Positions 11,619-51,358 of a stretch of DNA of 64,000 nucleotides are shown here, piece by piece. The notes beneath the pieces are model-generated. The model did not search any database. It saw only the letters and a program-made list of their open reading frames with translations, and was not told where the DNA came from. How positions within the stretch are numbered: position 1 is the first letter of the stretch; each line of letters begins with the position of its first letter. This DNA comes from Hyphomicrobiales bacterium (lineage in GTDB: Bacteria; Pseudomonadota; Alphaproteobacteria; JAPOUT01): positions 1,921 to 65,920 of the forward strand of contig JAPOUT010000109.1 of NCBI GenBank assembly GCA_026708545.1. The letters run 5' to 3'. The translations under genes were made by a program, and so were the position numbers.

Positions 11619-12596
11619 CTACACGCCGTAGTATTCCCGATACCACTCCACAAAACGGGGGATTCCCTGCGCGATGGATGTCTTCGGTTGAAAGTTGAGG
11701 TCGCGCACGCTTTCCGAAATGTCCGCATAAGTTCGGGGCGCATCCCCGGGCTGAAGGGGAGCGAGGCGCTTGTCGGCGCCTTTGCCGAGCGCGCGCTCGA
11801 GTGTCGTAACAAGTGCGCGCAGCGATTCCATTTTGTGGTTGCCAAGATTGTAGACGCCGAGCTCCCCGTGCGGAGGCGCCGTTTGTGTCGCGGCGAGAAC
11901 GCCATCAACAATGTCATCGATGTAAGTGAAGTCCCGTTCCATATCACCGTAATTGAAGAGGGTGATGGGTTTATCTTCAAGAATGGATTTGGTGAATTGA
12001 AACAACGCCATGTCGGGGCGTCCCCATGGTCCGTATACGGTGAAGAATCGCAGGGCGGTTACCGGAATGCTGAAGAGATGGACGTAGGCCCGCGCGATGA
12101 TTTCGCCGGAGTGCTTGGATGCGGCATAGAGGGAGAGGGGTTTCTCGAGCGGATCCTTGACGCTGAAAGGAAGTCTGTCGTTGCCGCCGTATACGGAGGA
12201 CGACGATGCAAACACGAAATGCCTGAGTGTGTTGTTTTGCCGGATGCGCCTGGCGAGTTCGCAGATGACGACCTGTCCCTGCAGGTTGGAGCGTGCGTAG
12301 GAGAAGGGGTCGTCGAGGGAATGACGCACGCCGGCTTGTGCCGCCATGTGAATGATGGTGTGGATGTTGTGTTCTCCGGCTGCGAGTTCGTCAACGACGG
12401 TCTCGTCGGCGATGTCGCGTTTGAGGAAGGAGAAATTCTCATACGGCCGGAGAAGTTCAAGCCGTGCGTTTTTGAGTTCGGGGTCGTAGTATGCGTTGAG
12501 GTTGTCGATGCCGGTGACGCGCTCTCCGCGCTCGAGTAAAGCCTTTGAGATGTGGAAACCGATGAATCCGGCGGCGCCTGTTACGAGGATGGTCAT
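11619..12596 (-). CDS. NAD-dependent epimerase/dehydratase (UDP-glucuronate 4-epimerase-like)
   Basis: N-terminal TGAAGFIG Rossmann motif, YxxxK (YAASK) catalytic motif, GalE-family length. Confidence 0.8.
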   Translation of the reverse strand: MTILVTGAAGFIGFHISKALLERGERVTGIDNLNAYYDPELKNARLELLRPYENFSFLKRDIADETVVDELAAGEHNIHTIIHMAAQAGVRHSLDDPFSYARSNLQGQVVICELARRIRQNNTLRHFVFASSSSVYGGNDRLPFSVKDPLEKPLSLYAASKHSGEIIARAYVHLFSIPVTALRFFTVYGPWGRPDMALFQFTKSILEDKPITLFNYGDMERDFTYIDDIVDGVLAATQTAPPHGELGVYNLGNHKMESLRALVTTLERALGKGADKRLAPLQPGDAPRTYADISESVRDLNFQPKTSIAQGIPRFVEWYREYYGV

Positions 12597-12692
12597 TTCC
12601 CGCGAATGGTAAAACGCCGCGATATTTTTTGCAAAGATGTCGGTGTCGGGCTAGGATGGCGCGGAGGCGGGGAGATTGAAAAGGATGGAAAA

Positions 12693-15176
12693 ATGAAGAA
12701 ACTGCCGCCGTTATCCGTTGAGGAACTGCGCCCGAGCGCGAAGGTGGAAGACTTTTCCTTTACCAGCACGGACGAGTTGGAGCCTGTCGTCAATTTGATA
12801 GGGCAGGAGCGTGCCGTTCGCGCGATTGGATTCGGATCGCGTATCGAGCGGGAAGGCTTCAACATGTTTTTGTCGGGCCCGCAAGGCGCGGGGCGGCATT
12901 ATGCGGTGAGTTCTTTGCTGCGCGGGAAGGCGGCGCAGGAATCGCCGCCGGATGACTGGGTCTATGTGAATAATTTTGACGAACCGCACAAGCCCGTCGC
13001 ACTGCGGATGCCCGCGGGAACGGCGGTTCCGTTTCAAAACGCGATGGGTTCGCTGATGTCGGATTTGGTCGCGGTGTTTCCCGCGCTGCTTGAGGCGGAG
13101 GAATATCGTGCGCGTCGAGGCGAAATCGAAGAAGAGGCCGCCCGGCAGCAGGAAGCCGCGTTCGAGGATTTGAAAGAGCGCGCCGCGCGGGAGAACATCA
13201 CGATACTGCGCACGCCGATGGGATTCATGCTGACGCCCACGCGTGACGGGAAGGTTCTCAAGCCCGAAGATTTCGAAAAGTTGGAAGCCGAAGAGAAGAA
13301 AGCAATAGAATCGAAGATAAAGTCGTTGCAGGAGGACCTGGAGCGCGTGCTGGAGAAATTGCCGGAAATAGAAAAACACCGCCGTAACGGATTGCAAACT
13401 CTTCATGGCAATATAGCGGAAGCGGCCGTGGACAATCTGATGTCGCCGCTTTTGGAAAAGTTCGGGGAGATTGCGCCTGTTGTGCGCCATTTGGAGCGTG
13501 TGAAGGCGGATTTGATTGCGAACGCCGATGCGTTCTTTAAGCCGGAGGAGCAGGCTTCGAAAGGTAGCGCGCCCGCGGTATCCGTATCTGCCGTCGGCGC
13601 GGGAAGCGACCTCGGCTTTCGTCGCTATGGCGTGAATGTGATGGTGTGCGCGCGCGGCATTGACTGCGACGGGCACGACGGGGACGCATCGGGTGCGCCG
13701 CTGGTTGTGGAAGAATTGCCGTCTTTGGGCAATTTGGTCGGAAGAATAGAGCAGATAGCGCACATGGGCTCGCTGATAACGGACTTCATGCTGATAAAGC
13801 CCGGAGCGCTGCACCGGGCGAACGGAGGCTACCTTGTCGTTGACGCACACCGCGTGCTTGGCGAACCGCTGGCCTGGGAGGCGTTGAAGCGTTGTTTGGC
13901 GGGCAGACACATCAAGATAACCTCGCTGTCCGAACGTTACGGCATAGCCTCGACGGTGATGCTGGAGCCCGATCCGATACCGTTGCGTGTGAAGGTCGTG
14001 CTGGTCGGGGACAGGGCGCTTTATTATTTGTTGATGCGGCATGATCCGGATTTTCCCGAACTGTTCAAGGTCCAGGCGGATTTTGACGAGGAGATATCGC
14101 GCACGAAGGAGAATAACGCGCTGTATGCGCGCCTGATTGCGACGACGGTGAAACGGGAGAAATTACTGCCTCTGGGCGCGGATGCGGTCGCGCGCACGAT
14201 TGACGAGGCGGCGCGCATGGCGGATGACAACGAGAAATTGCTTTTGCGCGTCGGAATGTTATCCGACTTGCTGAGCGAAGCGAATTATTTTGCGCTTGAA
14301 TCCGGGCGCGAAAGGATAACGGCGGCGGACGTCGAAGAGGCATGCCGGCAGCGTTTTGACAGGGCTTCACGGATACGCGAGCGCTCGCACGAGCGGATTT
14401 TGCGCAACACGATGCTGATAGCGACCACGGGCGGGGAGGTCGGACAAATCAACGGGCTTTCGGTGGCCACGATCGGAGGATTCCGTTTCGGGCAGCCGGC
14501 CCGCATCACGGCGCAGGTTCGGATGGGCGCGGGCAAGGTCGTGGATATCGAGCGCGAGGTTCATCTGGGCGGGCCGATACATTCGAAGGGCGTGTTGATA
14601 CTCTCGAGTTTCCTGGCGGCGCATTACGCCCTTGATGTGCCGATGTCCTTGTGGGCAAGCTTGGTGTTTGAGCAATCGTACGGGCTGCTTGACGGCGACA
14701 GCGCGTCCTCGGCGGAGTTGTATGCGTTGTTGTCGGCCTTGTCCCGGGCGCCGATTTCACAATCTTTGGCGGTGACCGGCTCGGTCAACCAGAAGGGCGA
14801 GGTGCAGGCGATCGGCGGCGTGAACGAGAAGATCGAAGGCTTTTTTGACATATGCAAAGAGAGGGGACTGACCGGCGGGCAGGGCGTTTTGATCCCCCAA
14901 TCGAATGTGAAAAATCTAATGCTACGTCCCGATGTCGTTAAGGCGGCGGAGGATGGAGATTTCCGCATTTACGGCGTCTCGCACATTCACGAGGGAATTA
15001 CGCTGCTGACCGGCTTGCCCGCAGGCGAGCGCGGCGAAGACGGCAACTTCCCCGAGGGCAGCGTGAACGCAATGGTGGAAGAGCGGTTGCGTGAGTTTGC
15101 GCATGCGCGGCGGCGTTTTAGTTCGGGCGCAAAAGAAAAAAACGGCGAGTCCGAAGCGGAAGGAGGAGGTAAATGA
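12693..15176 (+). CDS. Lon-like protease, LonC-type (AAA+ module with degenerate Walker A/B, S16 Ser-Lys protease domain)
   Basis: Start chosen at ATG 12693 (MKKLPPL) after GGAGG RBS; Walker A position reads GPQGAGRH (Lys->Arg), Walker B region VVDAH lacks Glu; C-terminal 'DGDSASSA' and 'NEKIEGF' match Lon catalytic Ser/Lys. Confidence 0.75.
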   Translation: MKKLPPLSVEELRPSAKVEDFSFTSTDELEPVVNLIGQERAVRAIGFGSRIEREGFNMFLSGPQGAGRHYAVSSLLRGKAAQESPPDDWVYVNNFDEPHKPVALRMPAGTAVPFQNAMGSLMSDLVAVFPALLEAEEYRARRGEIEEEAARQQEAAFEDLKERAARENITILRTPMGFMLTPTRDGKVLKPEDFEKLEAEEKKAIESKIKSLQEDLERVLEKLPEIEKHRRNGLQTLHGNIAEAAVDNLMSPLLEKFGEIAPVVRHLERVKADLIANADAFFKPEEQASKGSAPAVSVSAVGAGSDLGFRRYGVNVMVCARGIDCDGHDGDASGAPLVVEELPSLGNLVGRIEQIAHMGSLITDFMLIKPGALHRANGGYLVVDAHRVLGEPLAWEALKRCLAGRHIKITSLSERYGIASTVMLEPDPIPLRVKVVLVGDRALYYLLMRHDPDFPELFKVQADFDEEISRTKENNALYARLIATTVKREKLLPLGADAVARTIDEAARMADDNEKLLLRVGMLSDLLSEANYFALESGRERITAADVEEACRQRFDRASRIRERSHERILRNTMLIATTGGEVGQINGLSVATIGGFRFGQPARITAQVRMGAGKVVDIEREVHLGGPIHSKGVLILSSFLAAHYALDVPMSLWASLVFEQSYGLLDGDSASSAELYALLSALSRAPISQSLAVTGSVNQKGEVQAIGGVNEKIEGFFDICKERGLTGGQGVLIPQSNVKNLMLRPDVVKAAEDGDFRIYGVSHIHEGITLLTGLPAGERGEDGNFPEGSVNAMVEERLREFAHARRRFSSGAKEKNGESEAEGGGK

Positions 15177-48780: not shown

Positions 48781-48857
48781 CGGAGCGTAGCGCAGCCCGG
48801 TAGCGCACTTGTCTGGGGGACAAGGGGTCGTGGGTTCAAATCCCGCCGCTCCGACCA
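48781..48857 (+). tRNA. tRNA-Pro (anticodon GGG)
   Basis: Manually folded cloverleaf: acceptor CGGAGCG/CGCTCCG, D arm GCGC, anticodon loop CUGGGGG, T loop TTCAAAT, discriminator A, encoded CCA. Confidence 0.85.
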
Positions 48858-48859
48858 TT

Positions 48860-48928
48860 CCCCTGTTTTCTAATGTCTAGGGATGTCTGCTGAAACCCGA
48901 TTTATCGCGGAAAATGGCGAAAAAAGTT
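48860..48928. repeat. direct repeat copy 1 (69 nt) abutting tRNA-Pro 3' end
   Basis: ~87% identical to 49366..49433; similarity extends a few nt into tRNA 3' end (ccgct..gacca). Confidence 0.65.
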
Positions 48929-49200
48929 AAAAAACGGCTTATACACTGCATCGACGGCTATCAAAGACCACTGACCGCGCATCAAGAATCCCGAGATATT
49001 CCCGCCTGATTCCCCATCGATTCGCAAGAAAACTGTCCATTTTCCGGCAAAAATCCAACTGATTCGCTTAAAATCCGCATAATTTCTCCTCTGGCATATC
49101 AAGATTATTCCTATCCCTGCCACATAACTCCGGGAAAAAGCTTGAAATTCCGTCAAAACCGGGACGTGATGGCTATGTCGTTTGCAGACCAACTCAAAGG

Positions 49201-49241: not shown

Positions 49242-49365
49242 TTAACGGCTTCGGTATAACGCAAACGAGGCTGGCAATGACAAAATCCATAACGGCATCC
49301 CTAACGCTATCAATGACAATCCAAGCAACAATCCATTCGGCAAACGATAACGACCGCTGACCACC

Positions 49366-49433
49366 CCCCTGTTTTCTAATGTATGGGGATGCCTGGTGAA
49401 ACCCGATTTATAGCGGAAAATGGCAGAAAATGT
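49366..49433. repeat. direct repeat copy 2 (68 nt)
   Basis: Matches 48860..48928 with ~8 substitutions and 1 indel. Confidence 0.65.
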
Positions 49434-49579
49434 TGCCTGATAGGGTCTAAAATAATCTGTTGGTATATGGGGTAAAATCCCGGGCGGCGCAAAAAATCAG
49501 TGCCGCCGTTTCGAATACCTCAATAACGGGAGTTAATTCCTGATTCCCGCCGCCAATCATTCTCCCAAAAAGATCCCCG

Positions 49580-49595
49580 AAAAAAAAAAAAAAAA
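49580..49595. repeat. A16 homopolymer (T16 on minus strand, 2 nt after the tRNA-Thr 3' CCA)
   Basis: Counted directly; exceptional in a GC-rich context. Confidence 0.9.
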
Positions 49596-49597
49596 GA

Positions 49598-49882
49598 TGG
49601 TGCCGCCGGAGTGAATCGGACACTCGACCTCACCCTTCTCACCAACTACCGCTTTCGCGGCCGCAAACATCCGTCCGCGTTTGTGGTCCGGACCATCCCT
49701 TAACCCAAAAAGGGTTCTGCCCGTCTGGTCTCTACACCTTCCCCCTAGGAGGCTTGGCTCGGGATTGCCATAGGCCAAATGCCCGTAGGATTCCCCGAAT
49801 TTGAGCAGTTAACACCTGCCTGTTTCCAAGCAGGGAGGCAAATTATCACCAAGGGTGCGCTCTACCACTGAGCTACGGCGGC
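49598..49882 (-). tRNA. tRNA-Thr (anticodon GGU) interrupted by a group I intron; exons 49848..49882 and 49598..49637
   Basis: Minus-strand exons give GCCGCCG-UA-GCUC-AGUGGUA-GAGC-G-CACCC-UUGGU|AA-GGGUG-AGGUC-GAGUG-UCCGAUU-CACUC-CGGCGGC-A-CCA. D arm, anticodon arm and variable loop match E. coli tRNA-Thr(GGU) as recalled; 7-bp acceptor pairs perfectly. Confidence 0.8.
49638..49847 (-). ncRNA. group I intron (IC3-like, ~210 nt) inserted between tRNA positions 36 and 37
   Basis: Contains CAAAUUCGGGGAAUCCUACGGG, UAUGGCAAUCCCGAGCCAAGC and GAAGGUGUAGAGACCAGACGGGCAG, near-matching conserved P3-P7 strings of the Azoarcus tRNA-Ile intron as recalled; IGS GCC (after 8-nt L1) pairs with exon GGU; terminal G precedes 3' exon; peripheral GNRA hairpin CCGC-GAAA-GCGG. 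Confidence 0.75.
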
Positions 49883-49960
49883 AGAACCATCACGGGCATA
49901 TTAGAGGATGAAATCGCAGTTTTCAACGACAAAAGCCTTAAAAAATAGTATTTTCTCCCT

Positions 49961-51358
49961 ATGAAACACTCTACGGCAACCCTCCCTGATCGAGAGCAAC
50001 GCCTCGCAAAGGCGTTGCGAAGCAATCTGCGCAGGCGAAAACAGAGCATATCCTCGGACGAGAGAATCGAGGAAGCGGGCGAGGGGAACGACATCCTTTC
50101 CGTCAAGGGGGGAACTCGATTGGTTGGAGAAATACCCATCAGCGGAGCAAAGAACGCGGCGCTCCCGTTGCTCGTGGCAAGTTTGTTGACCGATGAAGAA
50201 ATGCGATTCGATAATATCCCGAGGGTTAGCGATGTTCGTATACTGCTCGAACTTCTCAATATGCTCGGTTGCTGCAGTGAGAATATTGACGGCACATGGA
50301 AACTCCAAGCCAAAAATATTACGCAAACTACCGCGCCTTACGAAATAGTCTCGAAAATGCGTGCTGGCTTCTGGGTCATCGCGCCGCTCCTCGCTCGATG
50401 CGGCGAAGCATGCGTGTCACTTCCCGGTGGTTGTGCCATCGGCGCGCGTCCCGTTAACCTTTATATCAAGGCTCTTGAAGCCATGGGTGCGGACATTTCA
50501 CTGGAGGAAGGGTACATCCGCGCCAATGCTCAAAACGGACTTTCCGGTGCGCATATTCATCTGCCATTCGTGTCCGTTGGCGCAACGCACGTCGTCGCAA
50601 TGGCGGCATCGTTGGCAAAAGGCCGAACCGTTCTTGAGAACGCTGCCCGCGAGCCCGAAGTCGTCACTCTTCTCGAGTGTCTCAAAAAAATGGGCGCAAA
50701 CATCAAGGGTGTCGGAACATCACGCATAACCATTGAGGGGGTTGGCGGACTCCTGCACGGCACGGGGCACACCGTTCCGCCTGACAGGATAGAGGCTGGC
50801 ACCTACGCTATCGCCGTCGCAATCACCGGGGGAGAAGCGGTTTTAAGGGGCATAGGCATCGACATGCTTGAAAGCCTGCGCGATATTCTCGTTGCCGCAG
50901 GCGTTGACGTCACCGAAAACGCCGAGGGACTGCTCGTTGCACGACGCACGCCCCGATGTAGCGCTGTGTCCATTGAAACCGCGCCTTATCCCGGGTTTCC
51001 AACGGACCTGCAGGCACAATTCATGGCGATGATGTGCCTTGCGGATGGAAATACCACGATTACCGAAACCATCTTTGAAAATCGCTTCATGCATGTCCCC
51101 GAGCTCATCCGTATGGGCGCAAACATCAATCTCCGGCGTGATAAGGCCGTTGTGCACGGTGTGCCCGAACTTGCCGGCGCAAGCGTCAAAGCAACCGACC
51201 TGCGCGCCTCCGTTTGCCTCGTGCTCGCAGGACTTGCCGCGCAAGGCGAAACCCGTGTACGGCATATTCATCACCTGGATAGAGGTTTCGAAAACCTCGA
51301 AGACAAACTCTCGGCGTGTGGCGCGAATATTCAACGCTTGAAGGAGACGCCCGCATGA
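49961..51358 (+). CDS. murA: UDP-N-acetylglucosamine 1-carboxyvinyltransferase (with ~45-aa N-terminal extension as called)
   Basis: MurA core from '...SVKGGTRLVGEIPISGAKNAALPLL'; catalytic Cys loop; no in-frame ATG/GTG/TTG near canonical N-terminus, so first ATG used. Confidence 0.85.
   Translation: MKHSTATLPDREQRLAKALRSNLRRRKQSISSDERIEEAGEGNDILSVKGGTRLVGEIPISGAKNAALPLLVASLLTDEEMRFDNIPRVSDVRILLELLNMLGCCSENIDGTWKLQAKNITQTTAPYEIVSKMRAGFWVIAPLLARCGEACVSLPGGCAIGARPVNLYIKALEAMGADISLEEGYIRANAQNGLSGAHIHLPFVSVGATHVVAMAASLAKGRTVLENAAREPEVVTLLECLKKMGANIKGVGTSRITIEGVGGLLHGTGHTVPPDRIEAGTYAIAVAITGGEAVLRGIGIDMLESLRDILVAAGVDVTENAEGLLVARRTPRCSAVSIETAPYPGFPTDLQAQFMAMMCLADGNTTITETIFENRFMHVPELIRMGANINLRRDKAVVHGVPELAGASVKATDLRASVCLVLAGLAAQGETRVRHIHHLDRGFENLEDKLSACGANIQRLKETPA

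Follow-up and report, generated by a model that had tools for sequence, protein, structure and literature searches.

A small group I intron of the Thr.5Ug class in a tRNA-Thr(GGU) gene of a Hyphomicrobiales bacterium

What divides a tRNA-Thr(GGU) gene of a Hyphomicrobiales bacterium into two halves, and how would a functional tRNA be made from them? The gene lies on the minus strand of a 64,000-nucleotide (nt) stretch of contig JAPOUT010000109.1 (assembly GCA_026708545.1), hereafter the window, and is interrupted by 210 nt. With a probability of about 0.9, this insert is a small Azoarcus-like group I intron of the IC3 type that splits the tRNA between U36 and A37 and belongs to the class Thr.5Ug. 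It appears complete and structurally well supported, and its sequence suggests that it splices. Reviews recognize four classical bacterial host types of tRNA group I introns, which the mapping of 5292 split tRNA genes expanded to 21 host/site types (Williams, 2020; doi 10.1101/2020.01.27.920355). Thr.5Ug is one of these and dozens of public examples exist, so that a preliminary description of the locus, according to which a Thr(GGU) host would extend the list, had been anticipated.

The split gene and the family of the insert

When joined, the minus-strand exons 49882..49848 and 49637..49598 form a 75-nt tRNA-Thr(ggt) with a normal cloverleaf in ARAGORN. The insert, 49847..49638 on the same strand, lies between tRNA positions 36 and 37, is preceded by U36 and ends in a G. 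The preliminary description, made from the sequence alone, had placed the exons at the same coordinates with the loop UUGGU/AA and had given the insert 210 nt and a final G; the ARAGORN call and the U36/omega-G register bear out the former, and the latter are exact.

49848..49882, minus strand: exon 1 of tRNA-Thr(GGU), 35 nt, GCCGCCGUAGCUCAGUGGUAGAGCGCACCCUUGGU (ARAGORN on the joined exons), with the acceptor 5' strand, the D arm, the anticodon stem 5' strand and the loop nucleotides U32 U33 G34 G35 U36
49638..49847, minus strand: group I (IC3-type) intron, 210 nt, no open reading frame (ORF), from Rfam RF00028 and covariance model R1
49598..49637, minus strand: exon 2 of tRNA-Thr(GGU), 40 nt, AAGGGUGAGGUCGAGUGUCCGAUUCACUCCGGCGGCACCA, encoded CCA included (ARAGORN on the joined exons), with A37 A38, the anticodon stem 3' strand, a 5-nt variable loop, the T arm, the acceptor 3' strand, A73 and CCA

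At the predicted ligated junction the end of exon 1, ...CCCUUGGU, is joined to AAGGGUG, and a class I Thr tRNA fits the anticodon arm CACCCUUGGUAAGGGUG and the 5-nt variable loop.

Regarding the family of the insert, the Rfam model Intron_gpI (RF00028), proposed as a check in the preliminary description, gave a divided answer: on the local region it aligned end to end (model positions 1-253) with E=3.3e-7, but its 34.5 bits lie under the gathering score of 50. Other Thr.5Ug loci likewise score below this threshold; the Rfam seed of Intron_gpI is without bacterial sequences, and cut-offs of 18-20 bits have been used for such introns (Williams, 2020). A second covariance model, R1, was built from 22 diverse intron cores, all from non-Thr hosts. 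These came from a scan of GTDB representative genomes with the J6/7-P7-P3 string GGTGTAGAGACNAGACGG, which returned at least 120 loci. Over the 64-kb window R1 has a single match, 49690..49808 on the minus strand, with 106.6 bits (E=7.6e-26), a score somewhat inflated given that its training loci were all retrieved with an 18-nt pattern from the window intron. Full-length identity to introns of the Williams seed alignment amounts to 62% for Azoarcus olearius Ile2.5Ug, 65% for Rur1.Arg.5Ug, 69% for Rba53.Thr.5Ug and 72% for Ncf2.Leu.3Ug. The Azoarcus-like core strings named in the preliminary description, CAAAUUCGG, UAUGGCAAUCCCGAGCCAAGC and GAAGGUGUAGAGACCAGACGG, are all present.

Fold of the intron and its covariation

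Helices P1-P9 were drawn by homology to the Williams consensus. The proposed pairs are canonical throughout (59/59), and an unconstrained minimum free energy fold recovers P2, P3, P4, P5, P6a, P8, P9a and P9b. The elements are as follows, helix lengths being given in base pairs (bp) and cells being those of the alignment described below.

49837..49850, minus strand: P1, formed by G34 G35 U36 and intron G+1 (49850..49847) with U-G-C-C (49840..49837)
49815..49834, minus strand: P2, 8 bp, closed by the GAAA tetraloop L2 (49826..49823)
49803..49808, minus strand: P3 5' strand CUGCUC, paired with 49722..49717, 100% of cells paired
49759..49798, minus strand: P4, UCGGGG/UCCCGA, enclosing P5, invariant in 19/19
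49789..49768, minus strand: P5, CCUACG...UAUGG, by motif match an A-C-platform variant of the 11-nt GAAA-tetraloop receptor
49736..49758, minus strand: P6 (GCC/GGU), invariant, and P6a (CCUC/GGGG, loop CUAG), which covaries
49726..49732, minus strand: P7 5' strand G-(A bulge)-GACCA, paired with 49695..49690, 100% of cells paired
49717..49722, minus strand: P3 3' strand GGGCAG, partner in the P3/P7 pseudoknot
49703..49715, minus strand: P8, ACCC-UUUUU-GGGU, 4 bp, unusually short
49690..49695, minus strand: P7 3' strand UGGUCC, in which C 49691 is homologous to Azoarcus C176
49641..49687, minus strand: P9 domain, outer helix ACCAC / GU(U)GGU with a one-nucleotide bulge
49679..49662, minus strand: P9a, a 7-bp hairpin
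49660..49649, minus strand: P9b, CCGC-GAAA-GCGG, near the 3' end and followed by GAG, which ends in omega-G

In P1, a U36-G wobble stands at the 5' splice site, the guide GCC occupies 49839..49837 and the loop L1 reads AUAAUU. This loop is probably 6 nt long instead of the 8 nt of the preliminary description, as G+1 can pair with the U before GCC; similarly, the CCGC-GAAA-GCGG hairpin regarded there as an addition is P9b, a standard element present in most relatives. A P3-P7 core with a G-binding site, which had also been expected, can be drawn with canonical pairs only. The pair G 49730-C 49691 of P7, beside the bulged A 49731, is the homologue of the Azoarcus G-binding pair G129-C176 (PMC13168695) and is a putative guanosine-binding pair. 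Features of IC3 introns are recognizable in the lack of P5abc, in GAAA as both L2 and L9b, and in the 11-nt-receptor variant CCUACG..UAUGG of P5; natural 11-nt receptors with A-C platforms are on record (PMC3300017). The tetraloop contacts would be those of L9b with the P5 receptor and of L2 with the short P8. One of the two expected in IC3 introns is without an obvious partner, P8 lacking the receptor motif.

Covariation was assessed in an alignment (A1, made with MAFFT) of 19 distinct tRNA-Thr(GGU) introns, in which 91.4% of the cells are paired, as against 27-48% when the partners are slid by 1-3 columns. Changes on both sides occur in 31 pairs, and none of 500 shuffles (0/500) reaches the observed values. 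The pairs with double changes are spread over P2 (8/8), P3 (4/6), P6a (3/4), P7 (2/6), P8 (3/4) and P9b (2/4). P4 and P6 are invariant and thus uninformative on pairing either way, and the GGU/GCC pairing of P1 is found in 19/19 of these Thr.5Ug introns, bar one unpaired U-G cell. The outer helix of P9 is paired in only 50% of the cells because MAFFT misaligned the last few nucleotides; in an anchored recount, a perfect 5-bp outer helix stands 2-3 nt before omega-G in 29/33 Thr.5Ug introns, with at least 9 different sequence pairs among them. The fold, including the P3/P7 pseudoknot, is supported by covariation.

Splice register, guide triplet and class

The string GGUGA occurs at both junctions, and for this reason several registers yield a 7-nt anticodon loop. 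The U36/omega-G register alone also provides the guide pairing. In this register omega-G is 49638, directly before A37, and the same U-1/omega-G register is common to all collected Thr(GGU) loci. ARAGORN without intron mode called only tRNA-Pro(GGG) at 48781..48857 and missed the split tRNA-Thr; a scan of the window at the Rfam gathering threshold likewise listed only tRNA-Pro and missed the intron. These misses reflect the sensitivity of the tools, not absence of the gene or the intron. In intron mode, ARAGORN finds the split gene, sets the intron 2 nt upstream and calls the product Leu(gag). Such register ambiguity in ARAGORN has been described, and is settled by the U-1/omega-G rule (Williams, 2020).

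Two readings that depart from a Thr.5Ug intron can be weighed at this point. The product could be a tRNA-Leu(GAG) made in an alternative register, as the ARAGORN call and the several registers with a 7-nt loop would permit. Position -1 would then be G and not U, and the second U-1/omega-G register with the same anticodon, yielding the loop UUGAGAA, has no guide pairing. Bacterial Leu tRNAs are of class II, with a long variable arm, whereas the variable loop here has 5 nt (class I); moreover, the anticodon arm and the acceptor agree with the Thr(GGU) tRNAs of 35 homologous loci, all of them spliced after GGU. The Leu(gag) call was therefore dropped on the grounds of G at -1, of the second register without guide and of the class I variable loop, and there is next to no chance of its being correct. 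Equally hard to credit is an insert that is no ribozyme at all, whether a fragment of a mobile element or a protein-spliced intron of the bulge-helix-bulge type, lodged in a tRNA gene by chance. While the silence of the default annotation tools is the sole point in its favor, a covariance model made from other tRNA group I introns gives 106.6 bits, the complete P1-P9 architecture is present with covariation, there is neither an ORF nor terminal repeats, and the site is 36/37 with U-1 and omega-G, as opposed to a bulge-helix-bulge at 37/38. Covariation and the R1 match effectively refute this reading.

In order to relate the guide to the host, the U-1/omega-G rule was applied to the at least 120 genomic loci and the triplet opposite the exon end was read for each host:

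Leu.3Ug: exon triplet CUU, guide GAG
Ile2/Met.5Ug: exon triplet CAU, guide GUG
Arg.5Ug: exon triplet CCU, guide GGG
Thr.5Ug: exon triplet GGU, guide GCC (4/4 among the listed genomic loci)

The guide triplet tracks the exon triplet across host classes. The match between the guide GCC and the anticodon GGU that had been pointed out earlier thus holds well beyond this locus, being conserved in the aligned Thr.5Ug introns and replaced in step with the exon triplet elsewhere. Among the listed loci of the genome scan, group I introns are mostly found in Leu(UAA). Single listed loci are in Lys(CUU) at position 4 (L017) and possibly in Phe(GAA) at position 2 (L031). In an Anaerolineae metagenome-assembled genome (MAG) and a relative (L023 and L082), ARAGORN first called Thr(cgt), and the U-1/omega-G rule leads to CAU.2Ug, of the Met/fMet type. 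In one further locus, L011, the search motif occurs twice, once on each strand and at a distance of about 0.5 kb, with a split tRNA called for one occurrence only.

Membership in Thr.5Ug was judged from the Williams seed alignment, which contains Rba53.Thr.5Ug (ggU/A-GAUU-UGcc...) as well as Thr.3Ug and Thr.2Ug members (Williams, 2020). The window intron has a tRNA-Thr host, a position after nucleotide 5 of the anticodon loop, U-1 and omega-G. It is a fresh example of an already described class that is common in public genomes. Other tRNA-Thr(GGU) introns among the at least 120 listed genomic loci are those of a Magnetovibrio MAG (L013), an Acetobacteraceae MAG (L022) and a Hyphomicrobiales MAG (L048), and a Thr-specific pattern run on metagenomes retrieved at least 30 validated loci, 28 of them distinct. 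At least 12 other intron-bearing Thr(GGU) genes, genomic and metagenomic together, adjoin murA, as does the gene in the window.

With Rba53.Thr.5Ug (69% identity) the window intron shares the host Thr(GGU), the site 36/37, U-1, omega-G, a P1 of the form ggU(A/G)...UGcc, a GAAA-capped P2, the P9/P9a/P9b(GAAA) layout and the identical core strings CAAAUUCGGGGAA, GGCAAUCCCGAGCCAAG, GAAGGUGUAGAGACCAGACGGG and AAGGGAUGGUCC. It differs from Rba53 in its length (210 nt vs 258), in a P8 of 13 nt vs about 60, in the receptor-like motif CCUACG..UAUGG of P5, which is a plain helix in Rba53, in G instead of A at position +1, and in the one-nucleotide bulge of the P9 3' strand. The Azoarcus tRNA-Ile(CAU) intron (Aol6.Ile2.5Ug, 62% identity) is likewise small and ORF-less, sits at site 36/37 and has the same core sequences and the P3/P7 pseudoknot; its P2 and P9, too, are capped by GAAA, and its P5 bears a motif of the 11-nt-receptor type. 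By homology, its G-binding pair G129-C176 corresponds to G118-C157 of the window intron in intron numbering (PMC13168695). Unlike the Azoarcus intron, with its guide GUG for CAU, its single P9 hairpin and the CCUAAG..UAUGG receptor in P8, the window intron has the guide GCC for GGU, a three-part P9 (P9, P9a, P9b) and a P8 without that receptor. The Azoarcus intron self-splices; the window intron is predicted to do so.

Leu.3Ug introns belong to the same family and have the same core, and some from Rhodobacterales MAGs are 73-75% identical over 167-180 nt, as close as other Thr.5Ug introns. In contrast to the window intron, they sit between anticodon positions 34 and 35 and have the guide GAG for CUU. 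Recent retargeting from Leu.3Ug was considered, for Leu.3Ug and Thr.5Ug introns are about equally frequent among the BLAST neighbors from beyond the species, and was rejected as unsupported by neighbor-joining. On 195 conserved columns, the latter places the window intron in a 17-member Thr.5Ug cluster, with a sister group of Thr.5Ug only in 73/100 bootstraps. Given this placement, nothing points to a recent move of the intron from a different anticodon loop.

The minimal P8, C55 and the gene in its setting

By analogy with the established group I pathway, splicing, in vivo as well, would take the following course. Transcription from a TTGAAA/TAATAT promoter would yield a precursor of roughly 300 nt, whose intron would form P2, the core from P3 to P8 and the P9 domain. 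P1 would arise by pairing of the guide UGCC with the anticodon GGU and intron G+1, with U36-G as the wobble pair at the 5' splice site. The first attack, after U36, would come from a free guanosine held at the P7 G-C pair (49730/49691). The terminal G (49638) would then move into that pocket, and U36, its 3'-OH now free, would attack in front of A37. Exon ligation would then leave the normal 7-nt anticodon loop UUGGUAA.

The putative transcription signals of the gene are the following.

49898..49926, minus strand: sigma-70-like promoter candidate from a consensus scan, TTGAAA, 17-nt spacer and the TATAAT-like TAATAT
49580..49595, minus strand: run of 16 T, starting two bases past CCA

The promoter candidate has 9/12 consensus matches, is the single site found in 49300..50100 and ends about 15 nt upstream of tRNA position 1; its sequence and place suggest that it serves the tRNA-Thr gene. 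The T-run is likely the transcription stop, and no canonical terminator hairpin was scored there after the tRNA-Thr CCA. It is a length-variable tract, with 16 T in the window vs 6-7 T in the strain variants L122-L125. An 18-nt imperfect copy (78% identical) of 49591..49608, which comprises the tRNA-Thr 3' end and part of the T-run, lies at 49491..49508, 100 nt downstream of the gene and inside a GGCGGC...GCCGCC palindrome; it may be due to chance or be the remnant of a duplicated tRNA end.

Two peculiarities stand out in an otherwise regular locus. The first is P8: the 15 nt between its flanking strands tie for the lowest value measured in 113 relatives, where the median is 29 nt. This P8 is without the CCUAAG..UAUGG tetraloop-receptor motif usual in relatives, leaving the GAAA loop of P2 without an obvious docking site. 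Its shortness is equalled in one relative, L109. The other peculiarity concerns the tRNA, whose cloverleaf and anticodon arm are canonical. The T-loop of the spliced form reads UCCGAUU, that is U54-C55-C56-G57-A58 (49620..49616, minus strand), and departs at C55 (49619) from the U54-U55-C56-R57-A58 conserved in elongator tRNAs. Normally, U55 is converted to pseudouridine and pairs with G18; it is found in 35/35 of the other collected intron-bearing Thr(GGU) tRNAs.

The intron and its host can be followed among close strains. The neighboring MurA protein is present on 21 contigs; six loci were fetched (L121-L126), and all six (6/6) have the split gene. Since C55 occurs in all six, it is not a sequencing error. 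Over the 75 nt of the exons there are 0 changes, and three of the contigs have differences in the intron, at 5 positions in all, at a regional identity of about 99%. Of these five substitutions, one turns a U-A pair of P2 into U-G and another replaces a U by C opposite a G beside P4; both lie in stems and leave the pairing intact, and the remaining ones fall in loops or joining regions.

Several points weigh against a functional Thr.5Ug intron in a functional tRNA: the Rfam score is under the gathering score, the R1 score is raised by the way in which its training loci were retrieved, the z-score of the single-sequence fold is just -1.42, the 4-bp receptor-less P8 could weaken folding, and C55 possibly impairs the tRNA. 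Some of them would suit a decaying relic, in which the intron splices poorly or the tRNA has lost its function, with tRNA-Thr(GGU) supplied by another gene: C55 is unmatched in the other collected tRNAs, and P8 is truncated and lacks its usual motif. Yet every core pair is intact, and the intron shares its core strings letter for letter with the self-splicing one of Azoarcus. Across strains about 99% identical, the exons do not vary and substitutions in stems preserve pairing. A good promoter match lies upstream, L109 has an equally short P8, and the 64-kb window, to which the search was confined, has neither a second Thr(GGU) half nor a second copy of the gene. A relic is accordingly rated as very unlikely. 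There is also a slim chance that the same peculiarities mark a naturally minimized Thr.5Ug ribozyme, its P8 receptor lost and its P8 cut to 4 bp with a U5 loop, in a tRNA with fixed C55, the folding and splicing of the two being co-dependent or conditional. The tRNA body or a protein cofactor, for example, might then replace the lost L2-P8 contact.

With regard to the surroundings, the genes around the locus are murA, DUF2948, hisD and UPF0262, and the nearest MurA and HisD among the fetched loci are just 48-57% identical. Gene neighborhood and closest relatives point to an alphaproteobacterium. Upstream of about 48930-48962, contig L121 departs from the window, an intimin-like IAT_beta gene taking the place of its sequence. 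The segments 48853..48928 and 49359..49434 form a direct repeat of 76 nt (87% identity) with copies 506 nt apart, the first of which starts within the final 5 nt of tRNA-Pro(GGG). The repeat resembles either an att-type scar, left by an element that integrated or was excised, or a small duplication. Farther away, two ordinary housekeeping genes were noted:

12552..15176, plus strand: LonB/LonC-like AAA protease, 874 amino acids
42474..44597, plus strand: membrane H+-pyrophosphatase, 707 amino acids

The window intron leaves the knowledge of group I introns unchanged. A minimized ribozyme, if that is what it is, would be functionally distinct and no routine copy, and a compact natural variant of 210 nt with a minimal P8 could interest ribozyme engineers. 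The analysis independently corroborates, by covariation and environmental breadth, the Thr.5Ug class, which has so far rested on a preprint. Its main value lies in annotation: standard pipelines likewise miss the split tRNA-Thr gene in the related genomes L013, L022 and L048, and genes missed in this way make genomes appear to be without tRNA-Thr(GGU), the reader of ACC and ACU.

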